A DNA stretch of 64,000 nucleotides from an uncultured delta proteobacterium. Its GTDB lineage: Bacteria; Myxococcota_A; Polyangia; Polyangiales; Houyiibacteriaceae. Below the pieces are notes generated by a model. It was not told the origin of the DNA, made no database searches, and was given only the letters and a program-made list of their open reading frames with translations. The stretch lies in NCBI GenBank assembly GCA_963699755.1, contig CAVOVB010000005.1, positions 96,001 through 160,000 on the forward strand, given 5' to 3'. Position 1 is the stretch's first letter, and every line of letters starts with the position of its first letter. A program made the position numbers and the translations under genes. Below, piece by piece: positions 21,757 through 39,412 of this stretch.

Positions 21757-22455
21757 ATGCGCTGTACGGTTGGCCTCGTTGAAGATGACGATGTGATTCG
21801 CGAGAACTACGCGGACTTTCTTCGCTCCCGCGGTTTTGGGGTTCAGGCGTTCGGCGATCGTGCAAGCGCACTCGATTCGTTTCGCCTCGACATGCCCGAT
21901 GTTGCGGTCCTCGACGTGGCGCTTGGCGAAGAGCGCGATGGTGGGCTTCTGCTCTGCTCGGACATTCGGCGCTTTTCGCAGACGCTGCCGGTGATCTTCT
22001 TGACCTGCCACGACAACGAAGTGGACCGGATTACAGGGCTGCGAGTCGGGGGCGACGACTATCTGTCCAAAGAGAGCAGCTTCGAGTTCTTGGCGGTGCG
22101 CATCGAGACCCTGCTCGAACGGCGAGAGGCGGTCTTGAGGGGCGATGCCAACGACGGACCATCCACCCAACTCATCGTCGGGGATCTCACGATCGACCTG
22201 CAGAAGGCCGCGGTGACTTGGAGGGGGATCCCGGTGCAGCTCTCGCTCACGCAGTACTGGATGGTGCTGGCGCTCGCCTCGGCACAACCGAAGCCCAAGA
22301 GCGCGGGGGAGCTCATGGAAACTGCGAAGATCAGCGTGGCCTCGAATACGGTGGCGGTACACATCCGGGCCGTTCGCGGGCGCTTCATGGCGGTGGACCC
22401 TGAATTCGACGCGATTCGGACCGAGCGGGGACACGGATATCGCTGGGTGCTGTGA
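21757..22455 (+). CDS. OmpR-family response regulator, PdsR-like
   Basis: LVEDDDVIRENY, VLDVALG, PVIFLT, DDYLSK; winged helix LTQYWMV...HIRAVR...DPEFDAIRTERGHGYRW. Confidence 0.9.
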   Translation: MRCTVGLVEDDDVIRENYADFLRSRGFGVQAFGDRASALDSFRLDMPDVAVLDVALGEERDGGLLLCSDIRRFSQTLPVIFLTCHDNEVDRITGLRVGGDDYLSKESSFEFLAVRIETLLERREAVLRGDANDGPSTQLIVGDLTIDLQKAAVTWRGIPVQLSLTQYWMVLALASAQPKPKSAGELMETAKISVASNTVAVHIRAVRGRFMAVDPEFDAIRTERGHGYRWVL

Positions 22456-22613
22456 GGCGGGTCACACCCCGCTCGCCGCGAAAAGCGATACGCTCGGCGT
22501 CGAAAAAAATTACGCAACCGCCGCACCGAATCGTCGATAACCGGTTCATCGAGATGTTATCAGCCCTGCAAACAGATCCGAGCTGCGTCCAGCGCGCGTT
22601 CCCTCCGCGTTCG

Positions 22614-24020: not shown

Positions 24021-24028
24021 GGAGCTGC

Positions 24029-25804
24029 ATGCGCTGGCTCGTTTGCGTCTTTGCTACGGTGCTCGCCGCGTTCGCAACCGTCTCGGCACAGGCCGAGGGC
24101 AGTCTCGACAGCGCTTCGTCCGAGGAGCTTCGTTGGCTGGTGGTGCCGGCATTGGGCGGTTCATCTCACCAAGCTGATGAGGGCATGCGTGTCGAACGGC
24201 TTCACACGACTGCCGAAGCACTGCGTCAGGAGCTCGCCGTCCGGGGGCATGCCGTTTGGCGTGCGGACCGCGCGTCCGAGCGCTTCGAAGTCGTGGGCTC
24301 GACGCCTGCTCCGACGATCAGCCAAAGCGATATCGATCTCTGGGTCGAGCGTTCGCGGGCGGCGGTGCGGTACCTGGCGCGCGCGGATTACAGGGCCGCC
24401 CGGCGCGAGCTCAAGGCAGCGCAGCGCTTGGCTGATCGGGCGGCGGCCGAGCTCAACCGGGAGGCGGCGCGGGCGCAGCAGGTCCTCGACACCTGCCTCT
24501 TCATGGTGCGCGCCTATGTCGAGACCAAGAACGACGCCGAAGCGCGAAAGCAGGCCCGCGAGTGCCGGCGTTTGGTCCCGCGCGTGGAGCCGAGCGCGTT
24601 CCGGCACACGCCAGAGGTTCGCGAGCTCTTGGTCGAGGTCGACCAGGAGATGGCCTCTGAGGCGCCGGGAACCTTGGACGTGCGGAGCACACCGCCCGGT
24701 TGCCTCGTCCGAATCAACGGCGTGGAGTTCGGACGCACGCCCCTCTTAGACATCGAGCTGCCGGTCGGCACCTATCGCCTGCAGGTCGAATGCGAGGACG
24801 ACGAACGAGGGCGCATTCATCGCGTCGAGGTGTCGAGCGGCCGGAATCTGTTCGAGCTGGATGCGGCACTCGAACGCGCCGTGCACACGCGGCCCGTGCT
24901 TCACCTCGATTACGCCTCGCCCGAGGCTTGGTCGCAACGGATGGCGCAGGCGCGCCAAGTGGGGAACATCCTTGGCCGCGCGAACGTGCTGGTGCTCAGC
25001 GGTCTCAGCGCAAGCGTGGTGCGTATCGACCTGAGCGCGGATGGGTACGAGCCTGCATCGGCCTGGTTGGCCGTGCGTGAGGGCGTGCCGGAGACGGAAG
25101 ATCTGCGGCGCGTCAGCGATGCCCTCTTCGAAGGCCGGTCGGTGGACTTCACGGGGCCGCATCCGATCGCCCGTCCAAGCTGGGCCGCAGACCTGGCGCC
25201 GGATCTCGCAGTCGGTATCTCTGCTGCAGCGCTGGTCGACGAGCCGGCCACGACCGAGCGCGGGGTGCCGCGGCCGCGTGATCAACGCGTTGCGGGCTGG
25301 TCGCTCTTCGGTCTCGGCGTGGCGAGCATCGGCGCGAGCGTCGGACTGCACATCTGGCGGGGCGAGCTCGGCGACCGTTTCATCGAGTCGTCCGCCAACC
25401 TCCACCCGGCCGAGCGATGGCACAACGCGCGCATCGGGGTCTGGACGACAGCGGCCTTCGGTGGCGCGGCTACCAGCGCAGCCATGCCGCTTCTCCTGCC
25501 CGACTACGAGCGAGCACCCTGGTGGGGCTGGACCCTTGGCGCGCTGGGCCTCGGGCTCACGGGCTACGCGATCTACGAAGGCGTTACGATGACGGCGTGC
25601 CCCGAGCCTTACATCGCCAACGAGTCAGCCGTCCGTGCCTGCGTGGAACGCGGCCAAGAGGCGGGGCGCCTGTCCTTGGTGTTGGCCGGAGCGGCGCCGC
25701 TCCTTTCGATTCCGCTGGTCTACCTGTTTCGCCCGCTCCGGGCAGAGCCTTCCGTTTCGGCGACTGCGGAGGGGGCCATGGTGCGGGTGCGCAAGGTGTT
25801 TTGA
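24029..25804 (+). CDS. PEGA-domain protein
   Basis: Signal peptide; GTLDVRSTPPGCLVRINGVEFGRTP...LPVGTYRLQV PEGA motif; C-terminal hydrophobic segments ending in F. Confidence 0.8.
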   Translation: MRWLVCVFATVLAAFATVSAQAEGSLDSASSEELRWLVVPALGGSSHQADEGMRVERLHTTAEALRQELAVRGHAVWRADRASERFEVVGSTPAPTISQSDIDLWVERSRAAVRYLARADYRAARRELKAAQRLADRAAAELNREAARAQQVLDTCLFMVRAYVETKNDAEARKQARECRRLVPRVEPSAFRHTPEVRELLVEVDQEMASEAPGTLDVRSTPPGCLVRINGVEFGRTPLLDIELPVGTYRLQVECEDDERGRIHRVEVSSGRNLFELDAALERAVHTRPVLHLDYASPEAWSQRMAQARQVGNILGRANVLVLSGLSASVVRIDLSADGYEPASAWLAVREGVPETEDLRRVSDALFEGRSVDFTGPHPIARPSWAADLAPDLAVGISAAALVDEPATTERGVPRPRDQRVAGWSLFGLGVASIGASVGLHIWRGELGDRFIESSANLHPAERWHNARIGVWTTAAFGGAATSAAMPLLLPDYERAPWWGWTLGALGLGLTGYAIYEGVTMTACPEPYIANESAVRACVERGQEAGRLSLVLAGAAPLLSIPLVYLFRPLRAEPSVSATAEGAMVRVRKVF

Positions 25805-26745
25805 TGCGTGTTTGGCGGCTGCAGCTTGTGGTGTTTGGGGTCGCGCTGATGGCGGCGGCGCAGGCATCGGCGCAGGCGTCGGAGTCAGCGCTAGAGGCAG
25901 TGCCAGCGTCAGAGGTAGTGCCGGCGGAAGCGTCAGAGACAGCGTCAGAGACAGCGCCAGCGAGATTGGGTCCGGAGCCGAGGGTGCTCGTGACGCCCGT
26001 GCAAGGCAGTCCGTCGCTTCGCGCGCAGCTTGGCGCTCGCATGGCCGCTGCGGTTCGGCGCGGGCTCGAGGCGCGTGGATATCGAGCGCCGGCTTCGCAG
26101 CACCTCCTCGGTCAAGCATTGATCGCTTGTCAGACTCCGGAATGCGTCGAGCTGGCGCTCGATGCGGCGCAGGTGGTGTTTGCCATCGTGCCGGCGATTT
26201 GGTCCCGGGACAGTGGCGGCGAGGAGCTCACGCTGACACTGGTCCAGAGGTCGGGGCGGAGCCTGAACGCGAGCGGGATGGTTGGGGAAGATCTCGCTGG
26301 GACGACCGACGGCTTGGTGGCGGAGTTGCTGGAGCGAAGGGCGGAGACAGGGGCAGCCTCAGGGGCGGCTTCAGGAGCAGCTTCAGGAGCAGCTTCAGGG
26401 GCAGGGGCGGCTTCAGCGTCGGGGTCGGAGATGGGGGCGTCGGAGGGAGCGAGGGGGCGGGGGCGTCCTCATGCTTGGAAGGCTGGGCCGATCATCTTGA
26501 TTGCGGGCGGGGTGGCAGCCGTTGTGGCGATCGGGGTTGGAGCGGGGACCCTGAACGACGATCAGCAGCTCAATAACTCGGCAGTCGCCGCCTGGGCGGC
26601 CGTGGGTGCCGCGGCAATCGGCGGAGGGGCCGCCTGGTGGGTCGTGGGGGGGCGGCGGCACCGAAACACGGGCGCCTCCAGGGCTGTTCTAAGCCCCGAG
26701 CTCGCTGTTCACCCCATGAAGATTGACTTGACGCTCCGGTTTTGA
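25804..26745 (+). CDS. Hypothetical exported/membrane protein
   Basis: TGATG-coupled; signal peptide, CxxxxC pair, GAAS-repeat linker, two TM helices, C-terminal LTLRF. Confidence 0.7.
   Translation: MRVWRLQLVVFGVALMAAAQASAQASESALEAVPASEVVPAEASETASETAPARLGPEPRVLVTPVQGSPSLRAQLGARMAAAVRRGLEARGYRAPASQHLLGQALIACQTPECVELALDAAQVVFAIVPAIWSRDSGGEELTLTLVQRSGRSLNASGMVGEDLAGTTDGLVAELLERRAETGAASGAASGAASGAASGAGAASASGSEMGASEGARGRGRPHAWKAGPIILIAGGVAAVVAIGVGAGTLNDDQQLNNSAVAAWAAVGAAAIGGGAAWWVVGGRRHRNTGASRAVLSPELAVHPMKIDLTLRF
26350..26415 (+). repeat. In-frame 12-bp tandem repeat (GAAS)
   Basis: ggggcagcctca / ggggcggcttca / ggagcagcttca x2, plus a further degenerate copy. Confidence 0.8.
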
Positions 26746-26759
26746 AAAAGGAGAGAGAG

Positions 26760-27725
26760 ATGATGCGATTCTCTTTCTTTCTTTTGCTTGTCACACTGGC
26801 CGCCGGCTGCATCGTCGAGGACAAGCCCCTGGCCCAGCCGGACGACGGCGGCGTCGACGCTGGCGAGCTCTGCGGCGCCGTCGTCTGCCCGGGAGACCAT
26901 CCCCTCTGCAACGACGAGCTCCAGTGCGTGCAGTGCACCGCGAGCGAAGATGCCTACTGCACCGAACGAAGCCTCGTCTGCGACGTCGAGTCGTCGACCT
27001 GCACGGAGTGCACCGACGACCGGGACTGCACCAGCCCAGCTGCGGCCCGCTGTGACGACGGCACGTGCGCGCCCTGCACCGACAACGATCAGTGCGACGG
27101 AGTGGAAGGTCTCGACCAAACCAAGAACGCCTGCGACGACGAGGGCGTCTGCGTGGACTGTACGCCGGAAACCGAAGAAGACACCTGCCCGGACATGAGG
27201 ACCTGCCATCCCATAGACAAGGTATGCACCGAAATCAATATCGGCGCGCTCGACGTCTGCGAAGAGTGCGTCTCGGACAGCCAGTGCGGCGAGGATGGAG
27301 CAGCGTCGGACGCGCACCGCTGTGTGCCGATGTACTACGAAACGGTGGATAATCGGTTTCCGAATGATCAGGCAGGGTTCTGTTTGAAGGTGTTCTCCAT
27401 GGGTGGATGTGAACAACCATACGCAATCGAAACTCCCGACAGGGAGAGCTTGTCCGGTGAACCACCTGACACCTACTGCGGGATCAATGAGACACTAGCA
27501 ACGTGTCCGGCGGTCCGCGCCCTCAAACAAAACGTAGATTGCCCTCAAGGCGACGATAGCGGTTGTCCGGAGAGTGGTCTGTGTAGAGATGTTGGAGGGC
27601 TTTCGGATACCTGCACCTACCGCTGCGCGAGCATTTTCGAGTGCCTGGAGAATATCCCCGATGGTACCCCCGGCTCCAGCTGCGGCTCATCCGGCTCCGG
27701 CAACGACGACTACTGCGGCGGTTGA
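26760..27725 (+). CDS. Cys-rich acidic lipoprotein
   Basis: Lipobox AAGC; repeated CxxCxxDxxC modules. Confidence 0.8.
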   Translation: MMRFSFFLLLVTLAAGCIVEDKPLAQPDDGGVDAGELCGAVVCPGDHPLCNDELQCVQCTASEDAYCTERSLVCDVESSTCTECTDDRDCTSPAAARCDDGTCAPCTDNDQCDGVEGLDQTKNACDDEGVCVDCTPETEEDTCPDMRTCHPIDKVCTEINIGALDVCEECVSDSQCGEDGAASDAHRCVPMYYETVDNRFPNDQAGFCLKVFSMGGCEQPYAIETPDRESLSGEPPDTYCGINETLATCPAVRALKQNVDCPQGDDSGCPESGLCRDVGGLSDTCTYRCASIFECLENIPDGTPGSSCGSSGSGNDDYCGG

Positions 27726-27867
27726 GCGTCTGCCGTTTTCCACCGAGAGGTCGAGCGAGGCACCGTCCACCGGCCCGAGGCTGACGCGAATCTCGCCGTC
27801 CAAGGCCGAGTGCCCCACCGCTGACTCCGGAGATTCGGGGGCCCCAACCCACCTGATGGGAGTCGGG

Positions 27868-29205
27868 TTAGGCCACCGGCAACCGAATTTCGAAGCAGGC
27901 TCCTGAGCCGTCTTCGCGATTGCGGGCCTCGATCGTGCCGCCGTGCGATTCCGCGATCGCCTTGGCGACGAAGAGCCCGAGGCCCGTGTTCTGACTGCCA
28001 GCCCGTTGCTTCCCGACCGTCACGAACGCGTCGAAAAGCCCCTCCATCTGCGCGGGGAGCAGGTCGCCGGCGTTCTCGACGAGGATCGAGGCGTGCCCGG
28101 GTTGGCGGCTCAGGGTGAGTCGAATCTCTCCCTCAGGCGCGCCGTGCTCGACGGCGTTCTCAAGCAGTTTGTCGAGGAGCTGCGCAAGCCGATCTTCGTT
28201 ACCGTCGACTAGGACTCCTGGCTCGACATCAGCGTGGAAGCGCCGCGTCACATGTACTTGCCGGAACGAGGCAACTCGCTCGCTCACCAGCTCAGTCAAC
28301 TCTACCGGCCCGCGTTCTTCGGTGGCCATCGCGGCTTCCAGACTCGTGGCCTCGGTTGCAGATTCGACTAGGCGACGCATTCGACCAAGGCTCCGCTGAG
28401 CGCGACTGACATAGCGTTCCGCCGTCGTGTCGAGGCTCGTCTGGTTGGTGAGCTCGAGCGACGTGCCAATGGCGATCACTTGGTTCTTGAGCTCGTGGCG
28501 CAGAAAACGCGCGAGGTTTTCGAGCCAAGTCAGCCGTTCGTGACGCAGGTCGGTCACCCGGCTCAGAAGGCCTTCACTCCGTTGCTTCTCTTCTTCGAGA
28601 CGAATGCGCTGATCGAACATCTGACGGGCTCCTTGATACTTCACGGCCGTGAACACGGTGCAGAACGCGGCACAGGTCACGAGGTAGCCCTGCGCCGCGA
28701 ACGTGTCGTATCCGCCATCCGCCACGCGCGAGAGCGCTATCTGGCCAATGGCGACCAGCTGGAGGCTCATCGCCAGTCCCCACTTCCAGCTCCACACCAG
28801 GATCCCGAGCGAGCCCAGCTGCGCGATGAGCAAAACGACCGTGTGGCTCAGCAAATCCTCGGGCGTGTACGGAATCATCGCCGCTGACTGGGCGCCCCAG
28901 CCGATGAACCAGGCCCACAGCGCGAAAAACTTGGCGCCTGGCCGTTGTAGCTTTGATGCGGCAATCGCCCAAGTGACGGCCCACGCGATCGCGGCGATAC
29001 GAAACCAGGTGAAACGCACCGCGTGCTCCGGGAAGTACTCGAAGTCTCCGGGGACCCAGGCGAGAAGAAGCACCGCGCAAATCATCGTCACCACGCCCAC
29101 AGCGCGCACACTCAGCTCAGCGGACTCAGCGTGAAAGCGCTCCCAAACGGCGGGGCTCCACTGAAGACGCTCTGGTTCGGTCCCTTCGTGCTGTAAGCGA
29201 AGCAT
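27868..29205 (-). CDS. Multi-TM sensor histidine kinase (PdsS-like kinase core)
   Basis: About 6 TM helices; WLENLARFLRHELKNQ, EATSLE, QLLDKLLENA, GLGLFVAK. Confidence 0.9.
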   Translation of the reverse strand: MLRLQHEGTEPERLQWSPAVWERFHAESAELSVRAVGVVTMICAVLLLAWVPGDFEYFPEHAVRFTWFRIAAIAWAVTWAIAASKLQRPGAKFFALWAWFIGWGAQSAAMIPYTPEDLLSHTVVLLIAQLGSLGILVWSWKWGLAMSLQLVAIGQIALSRVADGGYDTFAAQGYLVTCAAFCTVFTAVKYQGARQMFDQRIRLEEEKQRSEGLLSRVTDLRHERLTWLENLARFLRHELKNQVIAIGTSLELTNQTSLDTTAERYVSRAQRSLGRMRRLVESATEATSLEAAMATEERGPVELTELVSERVASFRQVHVTRRFHADVEPGVLVDGNEDRLAQLLDKLLENAVEHGAPEGEIRLTLSRQPGHASILVENAGDLLPAQMEGLFDAFVTVGKQRAGSQNTGLGLFVAKAIAESHGGTIEARNREDGSGACFEIRLPVA

Positions 29206-29234
29206 GGCGACGCGCCATCATACACAAGATCGAT

Positions 29235-30641
29235 TTATTCAGCAGTGTCGGTTTTCGGCTCTTTGAGTAAGGCGGCGGTCGAGTCGGCCGCCGGGAGCCA
29301 CTCGTCACCTGAAGATTGAACGTTTCGCTCGCGAGCCTCCGGCAGGCGCACCACGAATCGCGCGCCCGTCACGTCGGGAAGCGCTTCAGCCGTGATCAAG
29401 CCGCCATGATTCCGAGCTATCGACTGCGCAACGAACAAACCAAGACCCAGGTTCTCGGGCCTACTCTGAGACGATACGAACGCTTCGAAGATTCGTTGCC
29501 TGTCTTCGGGCAGCGCATCGCCTTCATTTTCCACGCTGAGCTCGAAGCACTGATCGTCCGAGCGCCGGAGCGCCACGCGGATCTCGGCTTCGGGATTCGA
29601 GTGCTCGACCGCGTTGTTCAATAGCTTGTCGAGTAGCTGGGCGAGGCGCTCCTCATTGCCCTGAACGAACAGCCCGGGCTTGAGCTCAAGCGTGAGTTGC
29701 TTCGACGGGTGGAGCTGCTGGAACGTCAGTACTCTGTCGGCTACCAAGGCGCTGAGATCCACCCGCGCCACCTCGTCGACAGCCAATGCTGCCTCGAGGC
29801 TCGTCGCCTCCGTTGCAGACGACACCAGCCCGCGCATGCGATGGAGGCTTCGCTGTGCTCGGTCGAGGTAGATCCGATTGGCGTCGAGCGAGTCTCCACT
29901 TTGCGCGAGGTCGATCGACGTGCTCATCGCCACCATCTGATTCTTGAGCTCGTGGCGCAGAAAGCGAGCGAGGTTTTCAAGCCAGTTCAGGCGCTCCTGG
30001 CGCATGCTGGTGATATCCTGCAGCAAGCCCTGGGTGAGCGCCTTCTCTCGTTCCAAGCGCTCTTGCGCTTGAAACGTCTCGTACGCGCTGCGTTCTACCT
30101 GGACGCTATGGAGCACGGCGAAGCCAACCCCCGCCACTAGGAAAATGGCGTGGCTTCGGACCAGGAAACTCGGTTCCCCGTGAAGCATCATGAGGGCGAT
30201 GGTGCCGACCGTTGCGATCGCGCCCGCTCCGGCTGTGGCCCAACCATCTGCGGAAAAGAGTACCGAGGATGCGGTAATGCAAATGAGCACACCCGCGATG
30301 CCGATCGCGAAACCCTGTGGCACCAACGAGAGAATCACGGCAACGCTGAGCCCAACCGAACCGATCAGCCCTAGGACGCACCAGTTGTACCATCTCCTGA
30401 AGCTCGCAAGGCCGCTCGCCAGAAACAGCAGCATGCCCAACCCGAGAAATACCAATCGTATCCCGAGAATGTTCCCTAGGCTCATCGGTGCAACGATCAC
30501 ATCCCAGCAAACGAACGCCATGTATACGAACGCCGCGACCAATATGTTTCGCCGGAACAGCTTGGCCTGCGTGTCCTGGTAGAGGTCGCGGAATCGGGCC
30601 ATGTCGCCTGCGGTCGAGCTTGCTGTTTGAAGGAAGTTCAT
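29235..30641 (-). CDS. Multi-TM sensor histidine kinase (paralog of 27868-29205)
   Basis: About 6 TM helices; WLENLARFLRHELKNQ, QLLDKLLNNA, GLGLFVAQ. Confidence 0.9.
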   Translation of the reverse strand: MNFLQTASSTAGDMARFRDLYQDTQAKLFRRNILVAAFVYMAFVCWDVIVAPMSLGNILGIRLVFLGLGMLLFLASGLASFRRWYNWCVLGLIGSVGLSVAVILSLVPQGFAIGIAGVLICITASSVLFSADGWATAGAGAIATVGTIALMMLHGEPSFLVRSHAIFLVAGVGFAVLHSVQVERSAYETFQAQERLEREKALTQGLLQDITSMRQERLNWLENLARFLRHELKNQMVAMSTSIDLAQSGDSLDANRIYLDRAQRSLHRMRGLVSSATEATSLEAALAVDEVARVDLSALVADRVLTFQQLHPSKQLTLELKPGLFVQGNEERLAQLLDKLLNNAVEHSNPEAEIRVALRRSDDQCFELSVENEGDALPEDRQRIFEAFVSSQSRPENLGLGLFVAQSIARNHGGLITAEALPDVTGARFVVRLPEARERNVQSSGDEWLPAADSTAALLKEPKTDTAE

Positions 30642-30642
30642 C

Positions 30643-31035
30643 TTACGTCACCTCTCTGGGCAAGCGTACCTCGAAGCGAGATCCGGGAGACTCGCGAATC
30701 TGGAGACTCGTCGCCTCCGTGGGGCTCTGTACCAAGCAGTTCATTCGGGCGAGGCTACGCCGCGCACGATCCAAGTATCGGTCTGGTGGCGCAGCAAGAG
30801 GGCTACGTTCCAGCAGGTCTAGCGAAGTGCCCATCACCGCAACTTGGTTCTTCAGCTCGTGACGCAGGAACCTCGCCAAGCTCTTGAGCCAATTCTGGCG
30901 CTCGTGACGCACGACCGCGACGCGATCCAGGAGCTCACGGATTCGCGTCTTTTCCTCCTCGAGCTGGAAGCGCCTTTGGAAGTCTGCCCGCACCATCTGC
31001 AGGTGTAGTTCCTGCGACACTAAGAGGATGCCCAT
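30643..31035 (-). pseudogene. Truncated third kinase paralog: DHp only, sensor and ATPase domains missing
   Basis: WLKSLARFLRHELKNQ...EATSL joined almost directly to the terminal GSRFEVRLP. Confidence 0.75.
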
Positions 31036-31250
31036 TGTGCCAACAAGAAAGCATCGATACTAGGACGTTTCCTCAGAAACGGTTAGAGGGCCACCGTGGG
31101 CCCGAGCGACAACGCGCGAACCAACTGAACCCAAGAGAAACGCTCACTGATCTTCCGTACTGCTTGCCAGCGGCCACCCTGCTGAGGCAAGATAGGTCCG
31201 CCCGTCGACAGTCCAGGCTGAGGAAGGACGGAAGGACACAGCATCTTCCC

Positions 31251-32099
31251 ATGGTAGGCTCAGCAACACGCCAGGACATAGAGTTCCACTACGACGTGGG
31301 CGATGACTTCTATCGGCTATGGTTGGATGCGGGGATGAACTACTCGGCGGCCCTTTGGAAGGGGGTTGACGATTTGGAGTCCGCGCAGAACCAGAAGAAC
31401 GCGTTTCACCTCGACGTCGTGAACGCTAGATCCGCTCAACGAATCCTGGACGTAGGTTGCGGGTGGGGAGCGTTGTTAGAGAGGGCACGCGCCCTGTCTC
31501 CGTGTGCGGAACTAGTTGGGCTCACGCTGAGTTCCACTCAGAGCGAGCACTGTAGCGCGTCACTGCCTGATGCGCAGATTCGACTGGAGAGTTGGGAGAA
31601 CCACTCACCGACAGCTCCTTACGACGCTATAGTCAGTGTCGGCGCCCTCGAGCACTTCGTGAATCATCGCATGACGAGGAAGGAACGCATAGAGACGTAC
31701 GCCTCGTTCTTTCGCTTCTGCCGCAACTCGATGTCACCGAACGGTAGAATGAGCCTGCAAACCATCGGCTATGGCAATCTTCCCGGGGGCAAGCTTGATG
31801 CATTCATTTACGACAGCATCTTTCCCAATAGTGATTTGCCCTTCCTCGATGAGCTAGTGGCCGCCACGCATGGAACTCTCGAAATTACAAGTGTGCGCAA
31901 CGACCGCCTTGACTACGCAAGAACTTGCAGCGCCTGGGTTGAACGTCTAACCCACCGCGCCGAAGAAGCTGTCGCAGTGACTGGCAACGCCGAGCTCGTT
32001 GCCGGGTATATCCGATACTTGAAGATGTCGGCCGCGGGATTCAACGTCGGAGCGCTCGCACTGTATCGACTGACGTTGGTTCCGTATCCGCAGCGCTGA
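31251..32099 (+). CDS. Cyclopropane/mycolic-acid-synthase-type SAM methyltransferase (short form)
   Basis: HYDVGDDFYRLWLD..MNYS, LDVGCGWG, GLTLS, SVGALEH, IFP, DYARTCSAW; about 282 aa. Confidence 0.88.
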   Translation: MVGSATRQDIEFHYDVGDDFYRLWLDAGMNYSAALWKGVDDLESAQNQKNAFHLDVVNARSAQRILDVGCGWGALLERARALSPCAELVGLTLSSTQSEHCSASLPDAQIRLESWENHSPTAPYDAIVSVGALEHFVNHRMTRKERIETYASFFRFCRNSMSPNGRMSLQTIGYGNLPGGKLDAFIYDSIFPNSDLPFLDELVAATHGTLEITSVRNDRLDYARTCSAWVERLTHRAEEAVAVTGNAELVAGYIRYLKMSAAGFNVGALALYRLTLVPYPQR

Positions 32100-32250
32100 C
32101 ATCGCTGGCTGGCGTTGGATGCCCGGGCTCCGACTTTTGACAACGTAGAATTGCCATGCATCGCGGCGCGACGAGCGGGTCCGTGGCCTGTTGGACAGTG
32201 TTTTTTTGTTCAGCCGATCCTCGGACGGACCTGTGGTATGTTCCGCGGAT

Positions 32251-33741
32251 ATGTCCATTCGACCGACAGCCAACGACCTGAAGCATAAGGACTTCATGGG
32301 CTCTGACTCAATTCATCGTTTTCGTCCTGGGCGCGTTCAATCGTGCGAGCTTGCCGGCTCTCTGATCGCGTCGTTCAACCTCGAAGGAGGCCCGTGGAGC
32401 GCCAAGGTTCTTGATGTGTCCAGTACCGGTCTGGCGCTGGAATCTGTTTCCACCGCCTGCGCTCCTGGGGCGTCGCTGTCGAATCTCGAATTGATGTATG
32501 ATGGTACGTTGGTTTGGTCGGGTACCGGTGAGGTAATCTACCAGGTCGGGGAACCAGCCAGCCGCGTCGGAGTGAGGTTTACCTCAGGATTGATAGAGGT
32601 CTCGGAGCTCAAATACAGAAACATCCTACAGAGCTCGGAAGCCTCATCTGCGATTGACTTGACGGTACTGGCAGCGGCACGACTCCCCGACGCATGGCGT
32701 GCGCGCGTCGCGGATGCACATCACTTGCTCCAGGTTGCTCGCTCCCATTTCAGCGCCTGCGAAGGCGAGCTTGCCCAGCTGGGCACCGAACGCCTGGAAC
32801 GTGAACCGGCCTTGATTCGCGCGTTCTACGATTCGTGGGCGCCAAAATACAGAGCTGTGTTCACGGAACTCTACGAGATTTCCATGGGCTTCGACCACGA
32901 GCAGATCGAGTTAGCGAGCCACTACGCGGAACGTCACCTGTACCCACTCCTAAAGGGGTGTCCGCTACATAGCCGGTCGCACGACAAACCTTCTGGCTAC
33001 GCGGGCGACTACCAGACGATGCTATTGTGTTCCGGACCGGACCATTTTGCCGGCTCGCTCTACGATAGATTTCTCTATTGGGTCGCCCGTAACTACACGA
33101 TGGTGAGAACGGTCCCCGCACGCCAACGGTTCCTACGCGACAGAATAGTCGAAACAGCTGGTACGACTTCCGGCCGGAAGAAGGTGGTGTCGATAGCATG
33201 CGGTCCAGCTGTGGAGATTCAGGACTTCGTGCGGACGATGGAGCCGACTCCCATCAAATTCATTCTAGTCGATCAGGATGAGGCCGCCCTAGCTTATGCG
33301 AACGACAAGATCGCGGCTGCGATTCTGTCCAACCCGAGGCTCGGTGATGAAGTGGAGGTGGAATGCCTACATCTCTCCGTTCGGCAGCTCATGAAACCCG
33401 AATCGGAAGAGCTGTTGGCCTCGATTGCCCGTCTCAGAAACGCTACTCTTGTCTATAGTGCGGGGCTCTTCGACTACTTCCAGGACGGCGTTGCGCAGAA
33501 ACTGCTCATGAGGCTATACGATCTACTCGGAACAGGCGGACGCTTGTTGGTTGGCAACCTGCGCGAAACGCCCGATACAACTTGGCTTCTGGACTACGTT
33601 CTTAGCTGGCCGCTCGTGTATCGGACCAGGGAGTCGATGGAATCATTGGCGAGCGTGCTCAAGCCTACCCCGAGGACCCTCCGAATAAGCTTCGATGGAA
33701 CCGAACGCTGCCTGTTCTGGGATGTAGAACGACCCGGGTGA
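32251..33741 (+). CDS. PhcB-like SAM methyltransferase with N-terminal PilZ-like domain
   Basis: KPSGYAGDY, SIACGPAVE, VDQDEAAL, YSAGLFDY, GRLLVGN, WPLVYRT; N-terminal VLDVSSTGL...VGVRF. Alternative start at 32296. Confidence 0.8.
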   Translation: MSIRPTANDLKHKDFMGSDSIHRFRPGRVQSCELAGSLIASFNLEGGPWSAKVLDVSSTGLALESVSTACAPGASLSNLELMYDGTLVWSGTGEVIYQVGEPASRVGVRFTSGLIEVSELKYRNILQSSEASSAIDLTVLAAARLPDAWRARVADAHHLLQVARSHFSACEGELAQLGTERLEREPALIRAFYDSWAPKYRAVFTELYEISMGFDHEQIELASHYAERHLYPLLKGCPLHSRSHDKPSGYAGDYQTMLLCSGPDHFAGSLYDRFLYWVARNYTMVRTVPARQRFLRDRIVETAGTTSGRKKVVSIACGPAVEIQDFVRTMEPTPIKFILVDQDEAALAYANDKIAAAILSNPRLGDEVEVECLHLSVRQLMKPESEELLASIARLRNATLVYSAGLFDYFQDGVAQKLLMRLYDLLGTGGRLLVGNLRETPDTTWLLDYVLSWPLVYRTRESMESLASVLKPTPRTLRISFDGTERCLFWDVERPG

Positions 33742-33744
33742 CAC

Positions 33745-36318
33745 ATGGACGCTGGGGGGGGTATTGACAACATAGACCTGGCAGAGCGGCGACCAGATCT
33801 GAGAGCAGAGCTATCAGAAACCAACGTGAGTCTGTTGGTTGCCGCCGCCCCTGTGATCAGCTTCTTCTTCCTGATCTGGGCGGGATTCGACCGAGTAATC
33901 GCCCCGCACATCTGGCTTGACCTCCTCGCGGCGCGCGCGCTGGTCGTCGTGGTGAACGCCTTCGTCGTGATTTGGGCATCGAAGTCGCAACATCCTTCAC
34001 GAGGTGAGATCGGCTTCTGGCTGTGGCTCCTCGTTTGGTCAATCGGAATCTCAGCGATGCTTCCCTTCGTCGGAGAAGGCTTCAACGCCTACGTGGTTGG
34101 CCTTTCGATCGCATTGCTTGGCGCTGGGATACTCCCGTATTGGGGACCGGCCTGGGCCATCTCGATCGTCCTCACATGCGCCGCTGCGGCTAGCTTCGGT
34201 GCATATGTTGCGCGCCCGGCTACTGGTGAGTTTCTAACATTCGTGTTCGTGATTCTAACAACTTCCACGGTGAGCGTCGTCGGATCATTGTTTCGAATCC
34301 ACCTGAAGCGCAGGGAGTTCGAGGCGAGAAGCGAATCTGAACGATTGCGGAGAGCCGAACTGCAGCGCTCAAACCAGTTGAGCGACGCCTTGGATCAACT
34401 CGCAGAGCTCGACAAGATGAAAAACGAGTTCTTCGCGAACATCTCTCACGAATTGCGTACGCCCCTTACGCTGATCCTCTCGCCGGTCGACCAGCTGCTT
34501 TCCAGCCTGCAGCCGAGCGCAGAACGCGAGGCATTGGAGGTCGTGCGCCGGAACGCCGCCCGTCTGCTTCGAATGATCGACGATCTGCTCGATCTCGCTC
34601 GACTCGACGGCGGAGGACTGAGGCTACGTGTGACGCAAGTGAATGTCGAAACCCTGGCAGAGAATACGGCAAAGAACGCCAGGCCCACGGCGACAGCGAA
34701 GGGAGTCGAGCTTGACTTCTCGTCCCAAGGCAGCGCATCGGACATCTTCGGAGATCCTCATCGACTCGAGATCATCCTCACCAACCTGATCGGCAACGCA
34801 ATCAAGTTCACGCCGCGGGGAGGACGAATCGATGTTCGCGTCGTCCACCTACCGAGCGGCACCTCGATCGAGGTCGCCGATACGGGTCCCGGAATCCCCA
34901 ACGATGAAATAGAGCGGATTTTCGATCGATTCCATCAGACAGAAACATCAGAACGTCGGCGCCAGGGCGGTGTAGGCATCGGCCTCGCACTCGCTCGCGA
35001 GCTTGCGCAGCTCCATGGGGGCTCGCTGACAGCGGATAGCAAGCCCGAACAGGGATCGACGTTCACGCTGTTTCTCCGAAGCGGAAAAGGGCATTTCCAG
35101 AACGAGGTAGTTGAGCGACGGCGGGCACACGTGGATGGGCATCCTGGACGGCGAATCGAGGACCGAGCAGCAGAAATGCCCTCGCGTCCCATGGAGGATG
35201 CCACAGTGGAGCTCCGCCAAAGCGAGGCACCCCCGGAGCGCGTCTTGCTCGACCGTGGACGATTGCCTCGCATCCTCGTCGCTGAGGACGAGGCGGACCT
35301 ACGCGGCTTCATCGTAGGCGTCCTGAAAGCCACCTACGTCGTCGATGCCGCAGAGGATGGAGCCGAGGCTATCGCGCTGATGAAACGCAACCGACCCGAC
35401 TTGGTTCTGACGGACGTCATGATGCCGGGGGTGAGCGGCCTTGATCTGACGCGCACGATCAAGGGGAATCCCTCGCTGCGACACATCCCGGTCATCCTCC
35501 TCACGGCGAGGGGGGAAGACGAGGCGGCGCTCGAGGGCTATGAGGCTGGCGCAGACGACTTCGTCTCAAAGCCCTTCCACACCAAGGTCTTGCTGGCCCG
35601 CGTTCGCGCTCACATCAAAATGCATGGTCTATCTCTGCAGCTCGCCGATCAAGCTCGTCTGGCATCTGCTGGAACGCTTGCGGCGGGCCTTGCCCATGAG
35701 GTGAAGAATCCACTCAACGCGGCCATGAACGCCGTGAAGGTCTTGCAGCAGGGCGGGTCGACGCGTGTCTCGAATGAGAAATTGATGAGCCTCGTTGTCG
35801 ATGCACTAAAGCGTATCGACAGCGTTGTTTCGGCTCTCGGTGCGCATGCGCGGCCGGCGGATGGAATGGACCTGGTGCCCTGCAACGTGCGCGAGGCGGT
35901 CGAATCCACCCTCAATTTGCTCGATCACAAGCTTCGTAGCCGCGTGACGGTTCACCGAGAGTACGAAACGACTGGCGAGGTGTATGCGCCCGCGCGGGCC
36001 TTCAATCAGGTGATGTTGAATCTGGTCGACAACTCGATTCGTTCGGGCGCAGAGAACATCTGGATCGAGATCAACCAAGCGAACAAGCAAATCTTCGTAG
36101 CCGTGGCCGACGACGGACCCGGCGTTCCAGCTGACGTAGTCCACCGCATCTTCGACCCCTTCTTCACCACCCGAGTCGAGGGCGAAGGCACCGGCCTCGG
36201 GCTCCACCTCAGCCGGCGAATCGCCCAGGAGTGTGGCGGCGAGCTGAGATATGAGCCCCGGCCTGGCGGTGGCGCACGCTTCGTGATGGAAATTCCCGCA
36301 ATGGGGCTGGCTGCCTGA
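33745..36318 (+). CDS. Multi-TM hybrid kinase HK-REC-HK (PhcS/PhcR-like fusion)
   Basis: About 6 TM; FFANISHELRTP; REC LTDVMMP/SKPF; second LAHEVKNP with full N/G1/F/G2 boxes; starts 3 nt after the phcB-like stop. Confidence 0.92.
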   Translation: MDAGGGIDNIDLAERRPDLRAELSETNVSLLVAAAPVISFFFLIWAGFDRVIAPHIWLDLLAARALVVVVNAFVVIWASKSQHPSRGEIGFWLWLLVWSIGISAMLPFVGEGFNAYVVGLSIALLGAGILPYWGPAWAISIVLTCAAAASFGAYVARPATGEFLTFVFVILTTSTVSVVGSLFRIHLKRREFEARSESERLRRAELQRSNQLSDALDQLAELDKMKNEFFANISHELRTPLTLILSPVDQLLSSLQPSAEREALEVVRRNAARLLRMIDDLLDLARLDGGGLRLRVTQVNVETLAENTAKNARPTATAKGVELDFSSQGSASDIFGDPHRLEIILTNLIGNAIKFTPRGGRIDVRVVHLPSGTSIEVADTGPGIPNDEIERIFDRFHQTETSERRRQGGVGIGLALARELAQLHGGSLTADSKPEQGSTFTLFLRSGKGHFQNEVVERRRAHVDGHPGRRIEDRAAEMPSRPMEDATVELRQSEAPPERVLLDRGRLPRILVAEDEADLRGFIVGVLKATYVVDAAEDGAEAIALMKRNRPDLVLTDVMMPGVSGLDLTRTIKGNPSLRHIPVILLTARGEDEAALEGYEAGADDFVSKPFHTKVLLARVRAHIKMHGLSLQLADQARLASAGTLAAGLAHEVKNPLNAAMNAVKVLQQGGSTRVSNEKLMSLVVDALKRIDSVVSALGAHARPADGMDLVPCNVREAVESTLNLLDHKLRSRVTVHREYETTGEVYAPARAFNQVMLNLVDNSIRSGAENIWIEINQANKQIFVAVADDGPGVPADVVHRIFDPFFTTRVEGEGTGLGLHLSRRIAQECGGELRYEPRPGGGARFVMEIPAMGLAA

Positions 36319-36597
36319 TTGCTGGGGCGCCCACCCCCCTGGCGAAGTCCGAGTACGACCAGATGCTACGAAACCGTGTGATCGCTCGCAGGGAACGCGA
36401 CACGGCTGTGGGCGTTTTCGCACCTGCACGGGCGTTCTGCCGCGTCTCTGCTGCCCGAGCGGACGGCGAACGGACGCCCCAGTGCCCCAATCGAGCCAAG
36501 GAATCGCCAATGGCTGCGGTGGTGGGCTAAGCTGTACATAGAGGCCCGGGGGAGGGGCCCGCTTCGTGATGGAGGGAACTGCCATGGAGCAAGCGGC

Positions 36598-37746
36598 ATG
36601 ACAGCGCACGTTTTGTTCGTCGATGACGAGGAGCCCAATCTGATCGTCTTTGAGGCGGTCTGTGGCGACACGTTTCCCGTGCTGACGGCTTCGAGCGCGG
36701 CGCAGGGGCTCAAGCTGATGGAGCAGCACGAGATCGGTGTCGTGCTCACCGACCAACGGATGCCGGGGATGACGGGGATCGAGCTTCTCGAGAAGGTCGA
36801 GGTCGAGTACCCGGATGCGATTCGTCTTTTGATCACGGCCTACTCGGACTTGCAGGCGGCCGAGGATGCGATCAACCGCGGGCACGTGCGGCGCTACATG
36901 CGCAAGCCGTGGGAGCCGGAGACGCTGCGCGCCGAGCTGCGCGATGCGATCGACCTCTACTCGCTCAATACGCGAGTGCGTGAGCTCGAGCAACGTCTGC
37001 TCGAATCGGAGCGCTCGTATTCGTTTAGTGTGGTGGCCGAAGGGATCGCCGAAGAGCTTGGCAACCCGGTGCGCTGGATTCGCAACAATCTGACGGCCAT
37101 CGAGGCTTCGGTGAAGGCCGCGACCGCAGCGCTTGCCGAACCGACGCCGAACGTCCCGCGTGCCTGCGGTACCCTGGCGCAGATCGATACGGCCGTAGCC
37201 GATGCGCGCGACGGGGTGAAGCGCATTTTGGAGCTGACCGAAAAGATGGCCCAGCCGTTGGAAGAAGCCGCCATCGAGGTCGTGGACTTGGCGGACGCGG
37301 TTCGGGTCGCGCTTCGCAAGGCAGAGAACAGCGGGCTGCGCGGGCGCGCGCTGATCGAAGTGGCCACGGGCGTCGAGCCAAAGGTGATGGCGACGCGCAC
37401 GAACATCGTTCACATCGCCCTCAATCTTTTGGCGAATGCGATTCAGCGGGCCGCGGCACGGGCCGGCGGCCAGGGTGTCGTGCGTGTCACGACCGCGATG
37501 CTGGGCGATGAAGCCGTACTCGACGTCTCGGACAACGGGCCCCCGCTCTCCCCTCAGCAGATGGAATCGGTCTTCAAGCCCTTCGGCGTCGGAGGACGCT
37601 TGCACGGAGCCGGCGTGGGCTTGGCGATTTCGAAGCGCATCGCCGAGGAGCTCGGAGGCCGAATCCTGGTGAGCGCGACCGATGATCACGAAACGCTCTT
37701 CCGGCTGCTCCTGCCGAGCGTCACGAGAAAGACGGGACGGCCGTGA
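36598..37746 (+). CDS. REC + kinase-like protein (PhcR-like) lacking the phospho-His
   Basis: VLFVDDE, TDQRMPG, ITAYSD, KPWE; H-box reads IAEELGNP; NLLANA, DNGP, GVGLAI. Confidence 0.85.
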   Translation: MTAHVLFVDDEEPNLIVFEAVCGDTFPVLTASSAAQGLKLMEQHEIGVVLTDQRMPGMTGIELLEKVEVEYPDAIRLLITAYSDLQAAEDAINRGHVRRYMRKPWEPETLRAELRDAIDLYSLNTRVRELEQRLLESERSYSFSVVAEGIAEELGNPVRWIRNNLTAIEASVKAATAALAEPTPNVPRACGTLAQIDTAVADARDGVKRILELTEKMAQPLEEAAIEVVDLADAVRVALRKAENSGLRGRALIEVATGVEPKVMATRTNIVHIALNLLANAIQRAAARAGGQGVVRVTTAMLGDEAVLDVSDNGPPLSPQQMESVFKPFGVGGRLHGAGVGLAISKRIAEELGGRILVSATDDHETLFRLLLPSVTRKTGRP

Positions 37747-38213
37747 CCGCGGAGGCGCGACCGGCTTTGCGCGAGTTCGGACTCATCTTCGACGAAAGCG
37801 CGTGGCCGCTCACTTATGTCCGGTTTCCTTCGAAGCCGCTGAGCGACGACGGTTTCGAATATTTCATCGAGCGTTACACGGCGATGGTCGAGCGGCGGAT
37901 CCCCTTCGCGACGATTCTAGACTCGAGAGGCCTGACGACGGCGATCACAGCGCATCAGCGAAGGCGGCTGACCGAGTGGTTCGATGTGACCGGTGACCTC
38001 GCTGGCGAGCACCACTTCGGGATCGCGGTGCTGATCAACAACGCGCTCATTCGCGGTGCGCTCCAGGCCGTGACCTGGGTGAAGCCGATCCCGGTGCCGA
38101 TCAAGCCCTTCGGCTCGATCGCGGACGCTGCTCCCTGGATTCGCGAGATCCTGCGCGAACAGAGGATCCCGACGACGACCGCGATGGAGATGCTTCTCAC
38201 CGGGCGTAGCTAG
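37743..38213 (+). CDS. STAS/SEC14 (SpoIIAA-like) small protein
   Basis: GTGA-coupled; WPLTYVRF, ILDSR, IAVLINNALIRGAL..VTW, F...A..W pattern. Confidence 0.6.
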   Translation: MTAEARPALREFGLIFDESAWPLTYVRFPSKPLSDDGFEYFIERYTAMVERRIPFATILDSRGLTTAITAHQRRRLTEWFDVTGDLAGEHHFGIAVLINNALIRGALQAVTWVKPIPVPIKPFGSIADAAPWIREILREQRIPTTTAMEMLLTGRS

Positions 38214-38233
38214 CAAACCCGGCTCGGTCGCGC

Positions 38234-39412
38234 CTACTTCACGGCGTAGCCGGCTGCGCGGACGACGGCTTCGAGGTCGGCCTCGGGAACCGAGCCCTCC
38301 ACCGTGGCTTGGCTCGGGTCGAGGGTCACGATGGCCGAGGTGACGCCATCGGCATCGCGAAGGGCGCGTTCGAGCTTGCGAACGCAGTTGTTGCAGGTGA
38401 GGCCTTCGACCTCGAGGGTGACGACGGTGGGCCCGGCAGGTGCACGGCGGCGGAGCCAGGCGCTTCGGAGGTCGTCGACCATGAAGTAGAGGAAGAGGCC
38501 GGCGAGCAGCAAGGCCGATGCCCAGGCCCACCAGGGCTGGCGGTGCTCATGGGTCGTGCTGCCCAGCGCTTCGAAGGGAAGGGCGGCGTCATAGACATAG
38601 GCGAGCCCGACGCTTCCAATGACGACGGTGGCGAGATAGACGCCGAGGACGCGCTTGCCAAAGGCCCGCTTCACCGCGCCGATGGTGGCGATGTTGGTTG
38701 CCGGGCCCGCCATCAGGAAGACGAGGGCGGCGCCTGTGGGCATGCCCTGCGTGATCAACGCGGCGGCGATCGGCACCGATGCGGTGGCGCACACGTAGAG
38801 AGGCAGCGCGATCGCGAGGGCCGCGAGGCCGGAGAGCGCGGGGTGGACGTCGGACCAGCCGGCGATGGCGCCCGGTGGAATCCAGACGGTGATCGCGGCC
38901 GAGGCGACGACGCCGAAGACGATCCACCTCCAGATGGGCCGGACGACGTCGACCATGTGCTCGAAGAAGCCAACCGTCGATTGCGGTGCGCTGGTTTCTT
39001 CGAAGCCCTCGATGCCTCTCGCTTCGGTATGTAGTGATTCGGTGACCGCGCCGCCGACGAGCCCCATGACGAGCGCGCTCAAGCACTTGAAGAGCGTGAA
39101 CGGCCAACCGAGAAACGACGCGCTCACCAGAAGCGAGTCTACGCCGGTCTGTGGCGTGCTGATGAGAAAGCCGACCGCCGCGCCGTCGCTCGCGCCGTCC
39201 TTCTTGAGACCGAGCCCTGCGGGAATGACACCGCAGGAGCACAAGGGCAGAGGCACACCGAGCGCGACGGCCTTGGCGACGCCGCCGAAGCCGCGAAACT
39301 GGCGCCGTGCAAAGTCGCGAGGAAGGAACACGTGGAGCGCACCGGCAGCCGCGGCTCCGAGAAGAAGCCAGGGCGAAAGCTGAAGCCATACCTGCCAGAT
39401 CGCGTCGAGCAC
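38234..39412 (-). CDS. ArsP/SO_0444-type metal permease with C-terminal HMA domain
   Basis: PLPLCSCGVIP, STPQTGVDS, YVCATASVP, AGPATN; GLTCNNC HMA motif. Confidence 0.88.
   Translation of the reverse strand: MLDAIWQVWLQLSPWLLLGAAAAGALHVFLPRDFARRQFRGFGGVAKAVALGVPLPLCSCGVIPAGLGLKKDGASDGAAVGFLISTPQTGVDSLLVSASFLGWPFTLFKCLSALVMGLVGGAVTESLHTEARGIEGFEETSAPQSTVGFFEHMVDVVRPIWRWIVFGVVASAAITVWIPPGAIAGWSDVHPALSGLAALAIALPLYVCATASVPIAAALITQGMPTGAALVFLMAGPATNIATIGAVKRAFGKRVLGVYLATVVIGSVGLAYVYDAALPFEALGSTTHEHRQPWWAWASALLLAGLFLYFMVDDLRSAWLRRRAPAGPTVVTLEVEGLTCNNCVRKLERALRDADGVTSAIVTLDPSQATVEGSVPEADLEAVVRAAGYAVK

Follow-up and report, generated by a model that had tools for sequence, protein, structure and literature searches.

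A phcBSR-like locus of a sediment Myxococcota genus in which a putative lipid-signal synthase and the sensor half of its kinase are exchanged as one cassette

In the agr locus of staphylococci and the comQXP locus of Bacillus, hypervariability affects both the genes that make the signal and the portion of the kinase that senses it. Signatures of balancing selection have been reported for phcB and phcS in the Ralstonia complex and are likened by the authors to agr (PMC6580516). PhcB is described as a small-molecule methyltransferase that makes methyl 3-hydroxymyristate, which is sensed by PhcS; and a survey that covered Proteobacteria only attributes the phc cluster to Hydrogenophaga, Cupriavidus and Ralstonia and presents Phc-type signalling as a feature of Betaproteobacteria (PMC10653808). 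Our literature searches found no paper on Phc-type quorum sensing in Myxococcota. Here we describe a locus related to phc at positions 27868-38213 of a 64,000-nucleotide stretch of DNA (hereafter, the window) from an uncultured delta proteobacterium of the Myxococcota lineage (assembly GCA_963699755.1, contig CAVOVB010000005.1), and we report that, within the genus to which the window belongs, the putative signal synthase and the first ~210 residues of the adjoining kinase are swapped as one cassette.

The module proper consists of co-oriented genes and of the following parts, with lengths in amino acids (aa):

31251-32099, plus strand: CMAS-family methyltransferase, 282 aa (PF02353, 181 bits against a cut-off of 27, E 4e-53)
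32251-33741, plus strand: PhcB-family PilZ-methyltransferase, 496 aa, the proposed signal synthase (PilZ E 9e-4; class I S-adenosylmethionine (SAM) methyltransferase)
33745-36318, plus strand: whole gene of HK857, an 857-aa kinase with about six transmembrane (TM) segments followed by HisKA-HATPase-REC-HisKA-HATPase
33745-34374, plus strand: variable 6-TM sensor of HK857, residues 1-210, with six hydrophobic segments
34375-36318, plus strand: conserved cytoplasmic part of HK857, with HisKA-HATPase, REC and HisKA-HATPase (Pfam)
36319-36597, plus strand: decayed duplicate of a kinase 3' end, abutting the next gene; an apparent recombination scar
36598-37746, plus strand: REC plus His-less kinase-like protein (PhcR-like pseudokinase), 382 aa, with REC and HATPase_c and no HisKA match
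37743-38213, plus strand: STAS/SpoIIAA-fold protein, 156 aa (predicted fold; no Pfam match)

The start of HK857 lies 3 nucleotides (nt) past the methyltransferase stop codon, and the gene of the STAS-fold protein overlaps that of the pseudokinase by 4 nt, to which it is translationally coupled. Checks of open reading frames (ORFs) and domains recovered all nine parts of the locus, at the same coordinates, that a first-pass annotation of this DNA had delineated.

The evidence for cassette exchange comes from the syntenic site in other members of the genus, where four upstream genes, the module, a permease of ArsP type with a heavy-metal-associated (HMA) domain, and Ppx follow one another in this order (in what follows, L and G numbers denote the loci or contigs and the genomes compared). 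Among the window, five congeners and L002, the pseudokinase is 79-93% identical, the STAS protein 71-81%, ArsP 71-88%, and the cytoplasmic part of the kinase 61-78%; between types in this same set, identity is 27-47% for the methyltransferase and 22-45% for the membrane sensor. Moreover, methyltransferase and sensor fall in the same groups: G070, G029 and G048 are mutually 67-74% identical in the former and 71-75% in the latter, L002 reaches 45-47% and 41-45% against these three, and the window reaches 30-40% and 24-34% against all four. The methyltransferase and sensor of G091 are nearest to those of G077 (43% and 49%, respectively), a member of another genus whose pseudokinase is 43-46% identical to the others. 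When the window methyltransferase was used as query, a relative was recovered in 7 of 18 congeners, at 34-38% identity or less.

The border of the exchanged segment lies inside the kinase gene. In a sliding profile, HK857 and the kinases of congeners share 10-57% identity as far as residue 210 (of the 35 windows in this stretch, only two are not under 50%); identity jumps sharply at residue ~210 and is 63-100% in most windows thereafter, with dips to 30-57% at residues 301-330, 361-390 and 451-510. The replaced portion holds the membrane part of the protein; about six hydrophobic segments are packed into the first 185 residues, and there is no periplasmic domain.

Thirty-four congeners were examined, and the contig reached the slot in 22 of them, which together with the window gives 23 resolved genomes. 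PhcB-type PilZ-methyltransferases of at least six types occupy the slot in 11 of the 23; the window and G175 have the CMAS gene in addition, and the PhcB-type cassettes of G040 and G063 include a desaturase-family gene. Six genomes (G132, G173, G166, G164, G157 and G155) carry a type I polyketide synthase (PKS), which in G132 is a KS-AT-KR-DH protein of 2173 aa that abuts the kinase and in G155 is a KS-AT-KR protein accompanied by a 138-aa methyltransferase fragment. Large proteins that combine PilZ with Methyltransf_11 are present in four others, i.e., G177 (with an enoyl-CoA hydratase), G151, G128 (with an MMPL gene) and G096 (split in two). One genome, G153, has a 577-aa PilZ-fused alpha-oxoamine synthase with a divergent fatty acyl-AMP ligase next to it; the best PDB match of this enzyme is serine palmitoyltransferase (E 3e-68), CqsA matches at E 8e-29, and NF005526 scores 185 bits against a cut-off of 428. 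The last of the 23, G111 (L141), has neither kinase nor synthase at the syntenic site and has kept the pseudokinase and the STAS gene; a separate methyltransferase-kinase-MMPL locus is located on another contig of this genome (L112). All of the enzyme classes in the slot build or alter acyl chains, and the earlier proposal of a lipid product with cassette-specific tailoring is backed by these slot enzymes and by the neighbours of the module described below.

Cassettes are distributed differently from the genes around them. The genomes nearest to the window in their core genes (G128, G155, G164 and G166, with 88-90% identity in the pseudokinase) have other cassettes, and G175 has the window-type cassette, yet its core is only 80% identical. 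Two contigs of G175, L146 and L134, both cover the kinase core-REC-core stretch, one of them with the window-type cassette, and probably reflect a mixture of strains in the bin.

A trace of the exchange may persist in the window itself. The 279 nt between HK857 and the pseudokinase (36319-36597) contain fragments that match the C-terminal residues of HK857 and end exactly at the next start codon; at the DNA level, they match the kinase 3' ends of L002 and L003 (up to 74% over 145 nt), and the sequence of this gap was confirmed by DNA contigs from two runs. Similar remnants of kinase 3' ends occur in four congeners (G084, G166, G151 and G128). The segment looks like a scar of imprecise cassette replacement, and the presence of decayed kinase 3'-end copies in the window and in four congeners points to replacement by recombination.

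Homology, linkage and cassette structure are matters of observation, and the cassette structure follows the pattern known from pherotype loci: synthase and sensor half are hypervariable and co-vary, the transmitter and the downstream genes are conserved, the site is orthologous, and four enzyme classes take part. Because synthase and sensor are exchanged together before a conserved relay, each lineage has its own synthase-receptor pair, as expected if each uses a private chemical signal. The cassette pattern, as read from sequence comparisons, supports a self-made lipid signal and a matched receptor.

The relation of this locus to the Phc system was examined with a stand-in, L072 of Pseudorhodoferax sp. 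Leaf265 (Burkholderiales), in which the order is methyltransferase (463 aa), 6-TM kinase (475 aa), REC-HisKA-HATPase protein (422 aa) and REC protein. The window methyltransferase is 31% identical to that of L072 over 315 aa (E 6e-35) and, in an hhalign comparison with 13 Burkholderiales PhcB-type proteins, aligns over residues 72-496 with a probability of 100 and E 3.5e-69. HK857 and the L072 kinase are 24% identical over residues 18-442 (for the membrane part alone, blastp E 1.5e-5), the second kinase core of HK857 is 30% identical to the PhcS-like core of L072, and the pseudokinase matches the L072 REC-kinase over its full length (26%, E 2e-26). The 156-aa protein neither matches the REC protein of L072 nor has a REC domain by Pfam. 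Hence the view of this locus as phcBSR-like holds for three genes, which are homologous and in the same order as in L072, and does not extend to a PhcQ-type receiver, in place of which there is a STAS-fold protein. In a tree of 98 rows (a quick LG+G4 analysis with some long branches), the window sits in a starred clade of 16 rows from Myxococcota, Planctomycetota, one Acidobacteriota and metagenomes; the Burkholderiales rows form a separate starred clade next to the Verrucomicrobiota rows. Given both the homology to L072 and the separate clade, the locus is best described as a phcBSR homologue that is not a member of the Burkholderiales PhcB clade, and the module is a distant homologue of a Burkholderiales phcB-S-R-Q cluster.

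NCBIfam returned no family for either the window or the L072 methyltransferase and has no PhcB model, and the KEGG name phcB (at JGI) is attached to 7 of the 48 homologues listed. In a search seeded with the Pseudorhodoferax PhcB-type protein, the best 120 of 4757 matches were Comamonadaceae-like and none of these came from Ralstonia. A Pfam scan of the locus, which was not a search aimed at PhcA, found no PhcA-like gene.

The PhcB-family methyltransferase is already on record in its 496-aa form at 100% identity (P0003) and belongs to a family of 3351 representatives at E <= 1e-3 (1558 at E <= 1e-10). The motifs to which attention had initially been drawn (KPSGYAGDY, IACGPA and YSAGLFDY) are all present, and they fall on invariant columns of the family alignment. 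An AlphaFold2 (AF2) model, with a predicted local distance difference test score (pLDDT) of 89.8, shows a beta-barrel (38-110), a helical bundle (117-304) and a Rossmann methyltransferase domain (310-493). A sequence search of the protein against PDB gave a chance-level match alone (AIM2, E 0.013).

The N-terminal barrel is PilZ-like. The Pfam match is weak in the window protein (E 9e-4), and PilZ is matched in 14 of 36 family members, at best with E 3e-7. Canonical PilZ domains carry two motifs, RxxxR and (D/N)xSxxG. The second is present in the window protein as LDVSSTG and is common to the PhcB-type enzymes, the large PilZ-methyltransferases and the PilZ-oxoamine synthase, and the Arg motif is variable. 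Binding of cyclic di-GMP (c-di-GMP) by this PilZ-like domain is plausible, and since three of the slot enzyme classes share the same N-terminal handle, it could place signal output under c-di-GMP control. Literature matches for PhcB together with PilZ concern the pilZ pilus gene and not a domain of PhcB.

The first gene of the cassette is placed in the CMAS family, both by a PF02353 score above the gathering threshold and by full-length alignment to members of solved structure: It aligns end to end with MmaA2, CmaA2, PcaA, MmaA4 and CmaA1 (E 2e-30 to 1e-26), with alignments to 1tpy, 1kpi, 1l1e, 2fk7 and 1kp9 that span residues 8-276. NCBIfam equivalogs all score under their cut-offs (147 vs. 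400). The EHF motif is retained, and there is Gln, as in MmaA4, at the His of the CmaA1 LHTI motif, which we take to be the bicarbonate ligand. Within the CMAS family (E. coli CFA synthase; CmaA1/2, PcaA, MmaA2/4), the protein aligns over its full length with CFA synthases as well as with mycolic-acid methyltransferases and has the short architecture of the latter (282 aa); it differs in that its gene is located inside a signalling cassette. This gene lies directly upstream of the window-type methyltransferase in metagenome contigs L082-L086 (75-100% identity) and upstream of it in congener G175 as well (82%). No CMAS-type gene was found at any of 80 species loci, and a close copy is missing from 39 of 40 congeners; it is, therefore, confined to one cassette type. 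As it accompanies the window-type cassette only, a tailoring enzyme of one signal variant is a fair description of its probable role. A Ralstonia gene beside phcQ reportedly encodes a methyltransferase of unknown role and is a possible parallel to the second methyltransferase here (PMC6580516).

The pseudokinase, which occurs in 39 of 40 congeners at 64-90% identity, has an intact receiver and Glu at the position of the phospho-acceptor (H-box) His; this position is Asp or Glu in L003 and L002 and Arg in L056 and L039, and the His is kept in 11 other homologues of the pseudokinase and in L072. Its partner gene had been annotated as STAS/SEC14-like. The STAS part of that assignment agrees with the predicted fold (AF2, pLDDT 87.8), for which the top Foldseek matches are SpoIIAA, a DUF3478 SpoIIAA-like protein, RsbS and STAS domains, all of them borderline (E 1.3e-3 to 4e-3, TM-score 0.5-0.7), and with an Atlas lead to SpoIIAA-like proteins (score 0.89); no result supports the SEC14 part. 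Six paralogues of this protein are encoded elsewhere in the genome, none adjoining kinase or receiver genes, so their context gives no function for the 156-aa protein. A complex prediction for residues 120-382 of the pseudokinase with the STAS-fold protein scored 0.00, which speaks neither for nor against binding.

Linkage of the methyltransferase to membrane kinases, as anticipated for a conserved system, extends well beyond this genus. In a scan of species genomes for the methyltransferase family, at least 592 of 599 matched stretches were confirmed, and the methyltransferase gene has a kinase core next to it in 67 of the 80 best species loci (at least eight phyla); 63 of 90 loci yielded a kinase whose N-terminal domain is polytopic. 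The kinase gene is co-oriented and downstream in Myxococcota, upstream in Acidobacteriota, and convergent in Alphaproteobacteria.

Other neighbours of the module were scanned in about 100 loci (312 of 329 ORFs, the other 17 being already identified), and their counts are descriptive only because kin are not independent. Outside the genus, genes for FadL-type outer-membrane transporters occur at seven loci and for phospholipase A1 at one; genes of the FA_desaturase family occur at five loci outside the genus and in two congeners; and MMPL transporters are near the module in 11 loci, ten of them in other phyla (nine of the 11 are in Parvibaculaceae, and one is L112 of the congener G111). In all nine of the Parvibaculaceae loci (L019, L026, L029, L034, L037, L041, L057, L060 and L063), the MMPL-family gene is directly upstream of the methyltransferase, making this protein, of the RND lipid exporter type, a candidate exporter of the product. 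The methyltransferase of three Bdellovibrionota loci (L020, L030 and L031) is followed not by a histidine kinase but by a protein with an adenylate/guanylate cyclase domain, which suggests that a similar type of product is read out in another way there. In Leptospirales L049 (8741-14397), an anti-sigma-like HATPase_c_2 protein and an MCP-signal protein precede the methyltransferase and two SpoIIE-type phosphatases follow it; the output there is partner-switching, in place of two-component signalling. Just upstream of the module in Thermoanaerobaculaceae L024 (38-2029) is a gene of the penicillin-amidase family, which includes acyl-homoserine-lactone acylases.

The remaining features of the locus are three kinase genes that, as first annotated, are divergent from the operon, and the gene that follows the module:

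27868-29205, minus strand: kinase HKa, 445 aa, HisKA + HATPase_c (Pfam); divergent from the operon
29235-30641, minus strand: kinase HKb, 468 aa, MASE8 (E 1.5e-6), HisKA and HATPase_c; 6-TM sensor
30643-31035, minus strand: kinase remnant, 130 aa, HisKA (E 6e-6), no ATPase domain
38234-39412, minus strand: ArsP-type permease with a C-terminal HMA domain (Pfam)

The two intact divergent kinases are of the same 6-TM sensor class as HK857: The N-terminal membrane part of HKa matches the sensor of HK857 (blastp E 1e-9) and those of congeners (E ~1e-11), and HKa and HKb are 50% identical over 274 aa in their cores. HKa has a copy at the same locus in congener G128 (92% identical); a copy of HKb (64% identical) adjoins the CMAS gene in L084, and L085 lacks one. 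Published mentions of MASE8 proved uninformative. HKb lies only ~600 nt from the CMAS gene, and the remnant between them recurs in the near-identical contig L082. In this contig, which otherwise hardly differs from the window, HKb is spread over three frames (463-1223), which could mean a frameshift in the allele or faulty assembly of either sequence. We considered HKa and HKb as receivers for the cassette types of congeners; the membrane parts of the two share only 21-30% identity with the sensor of any congener, which gives this role no support.

The ArsP-HMA gene is beside the locus in congeners at 71-92% identity. On the other side, the four upstream genes (22452-27725) are syntenic in congeners and fast-diverging (35-78% identity), and encode a protein with a MopE-like metal-binding motif, a PEGA-domain protein, and two proteins that have no Pfam family.

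The DNA of the stretch is present in sediment, marine-sediment and estuary metagenomes. Short contigs from two metatranscriptome libraries, from two studies, align to it with 0-2 mismatches and cover the methyltransferase, the methyltransferase-kinase junction (33620-33825), the kinase, the gap, the pseudokinase, HKb and the remnant; this support for expression is weak because DNA carry-over is possible in such libraries, and regions that have no such contigs do not count as silent. A scan of 27500-38600 for promoters and terminators was uninformative (no promoter-like sites, and 10 terminator-like sites where 8.0 are expected).

We consider it reasonably probable that the locus is one allele of a quorum-sensing-like circuit, in which a self-made lipid signal is paired with a matched receptor. 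Under this scheme, the PhcB-family methyltransferase would use SAM to methylate a fatty-acyl precursor, and the resulting lipid, most likely a methyl ester, would be small and able to permeate membranes. In this cassette type, the CMAS enzyme would act beforehand on a double bond in the acyl chain, through methyl-branching, cyclopropanation or hydroxy-methylation. The 6-TM domain of the downstream kinase would sense the product within the membrane, and the signal would be passed from HK-REC-HK to the receiver-controlled pseudokinase and on to the STAS-fold protein, a relay whose component domains are all present and whose wiring we propose. Production of the signal may be gated by c-di-GMP through the PilZ-like N-terminal domain of the synthase.

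Several points weigh against this interpretation. Both the product and its release from the cell are inferred, and the locus has no DNA-binding output regulator. The comparison with Phc was made with L072 and not with an experimentally studied PhcB, and the methyltransferase is outside the Burkholderiales PhcB clade in the 98-row tree, an outcome that the first-pass annotation had itself named as refuting its proposal. The Arg motif of the PilZ-like domain, RFRPGR, is RxxR and not the canonical RxxxR. CMAS and desaturase enzymes are also ordinary modifiers of membrane lipids. Correlations between distances in 62 of the loci with a polytopic kinase (Mantel r = 0.84 for methyltransferase and sensor, 0.78 for methyltransferase and kinase core, partial r = 0.62) carry little weight because relatedness was uncontrolled; and in several pairs of Alphaproteobacteria, the methyltransferases are 77-90% identical and the sensors only 43-48%, so the divergence of the sensor is not always tied to that of the synthase. 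Finally, most of the genomes are metagenome bins, and the contigs of 12 of the 34 congeners end before the slot.

A rival explanation is membrane-lipid homeostasis, in which the lipids modified by the enzymes are those of the producing cell's membrane and the kinase responds to the physical condition of that membrane, with no intercellular signal. DesK is such a sensor of membrane state, paired with a desaturase, and homeostasis would suit both the CMAS-family and desaturase-family genes in the slot and a sensor that is almost wholly embedded in the membrane. Nevertheless, homeostasis offers no reason for synthase and sensor to be jointly replaced by unrelated chemistries within one genus, and the methyltransferase family is homologous to a signal synthase and has FadL and MMPL neighbours elsewhere; we regard this explanation as unlikely. 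With a PKS, an acyl-AMP ligase, an MMPL exporter and tailoring enzymes among their contents, the cassettes also look like biosynthetic gene clusters of small size, and their distribution is patchy and incongruent with core genes, as might result from an arms race if the product were a lipid or polyketide weapon, or another secondary metabolite, and the matched kinase served auto-induction or self-protection. However, there are only one or two enzymes per cassette, no resistance or immunity gene was seen, the constant partner is a sensor domain and not a transporter, and the nearest studied relative is a signal synthase, all of which leave a weapon rather improbable.

It is less probable still that the PilZ-methyltransferase is a protein carboxyl methyltransferase that adapts the output of the neighbouring kinases by methylating them, as CheR would. 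In PDB, the family profile does match CheR best at the sequence level (5ftw, E 2.6e-4), and the Pfam CheR domain is matched in 5 of 36 family members, but these matches are weak and cover the SAM-binding core only, and the leading hits of a fold search are small-molecule methyltransferases and an uncharacterised protein of Bordetella. PhcB, too, is described as a small-molecule enzyme, and the PKS and alpha-oxoamine synthase cassettes in the same slot cannot act on kinases in this manner. All three explanations account for the exchange of unrelated synthases less well than does a quorum-sensing-like circuit.

Extending the quorum-sensing-like reading from this locus to its relatives, we tentatively suggest, as a possibility that we would not yet favour, that a marine-sediment Myxococcota genus maintains a conserved phosphorelay with a plug-in slot, through which unrelated lipid-signal synthases are exchanged along with matching 6-TM sensors. 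If true, pherotypes would diversify by the swapping of whole signal chemistries, and Phc-type and Cqs/Lqs-type signalling would be two faces of a much wider, undescribed family of lipid quorum sensing. The Phc-like building plan itself recurs in at least eight phyla, and the PilZ domain hints at gating of signal production by c-di-GMP. Within one genus, the locus behaves like a peptide pherotype locus and provides a natural set of putatively orthogonal synthase-receptor pairs, on which the privatisation of signals in social bacteria of sediments can be tested. With no more than one or two enzymes per cassette, heterologous expression should give ready access to the signals.

Among described systems, Phc shares with this locus the order of methyltransferase, polytopic kinase and REC-kinase, and in both the linked regulators are without a DNA-binding domain. 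Synthase and sensor genes evolve unusually in both as well, which for Ralstonia takes the form of balancing selection (PMC6580516). The window differs in that the (D/N)xSxxG PilZ motif is kept (it is not visible in the Burkholderiales consensus), that the kinase has an extra REC and a second kinase core, that the PhcR-like protein has lost its His and a STAS-fold protein stands in place of PhcQ, that there is an extra CMAS-type methyltransferase, and that the host is a Myxococcota-like sediment organism. The arrangement of an HK-REC-HK protein followed by a REC-kinase is also that of LvrA/LvrB in Leptospira, and hybrid_HK_LvrA (NCBIfam) is the second-best match of HK857; however, its 280 bits are far under the cut-off of 1200, and in the window the second protein is a pseudokinase, followed by a STAS-fold partner.

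With CqsA/CqsS and LqsA/LqsS, the locus has in common a 6-TM kinase and a lipid-derived autoinducer (the latter being presumed here), and the enzyme in the slot of G153 comes from the same alpha-oxoamine synthase superfamily as CqsA and LqsA. But serine palmitoyltransferase, KBL and BioF are closer to that enzyme, a PilZ domain is fused to it, and the window has a methyltransferase instead. In evolutionary pattern, the locus resembles agr and comQXP: hypervariable signal genes and a hypervariable sensor half are set against a conserved transmitter half and conserved genes downstream, and a sharp border runs inside the kinase. In those systems the signals are peptides, whereas the exchanged genes here encode lipid and polyketide enzymes, and it is whole enzyme classes that are exchanged.

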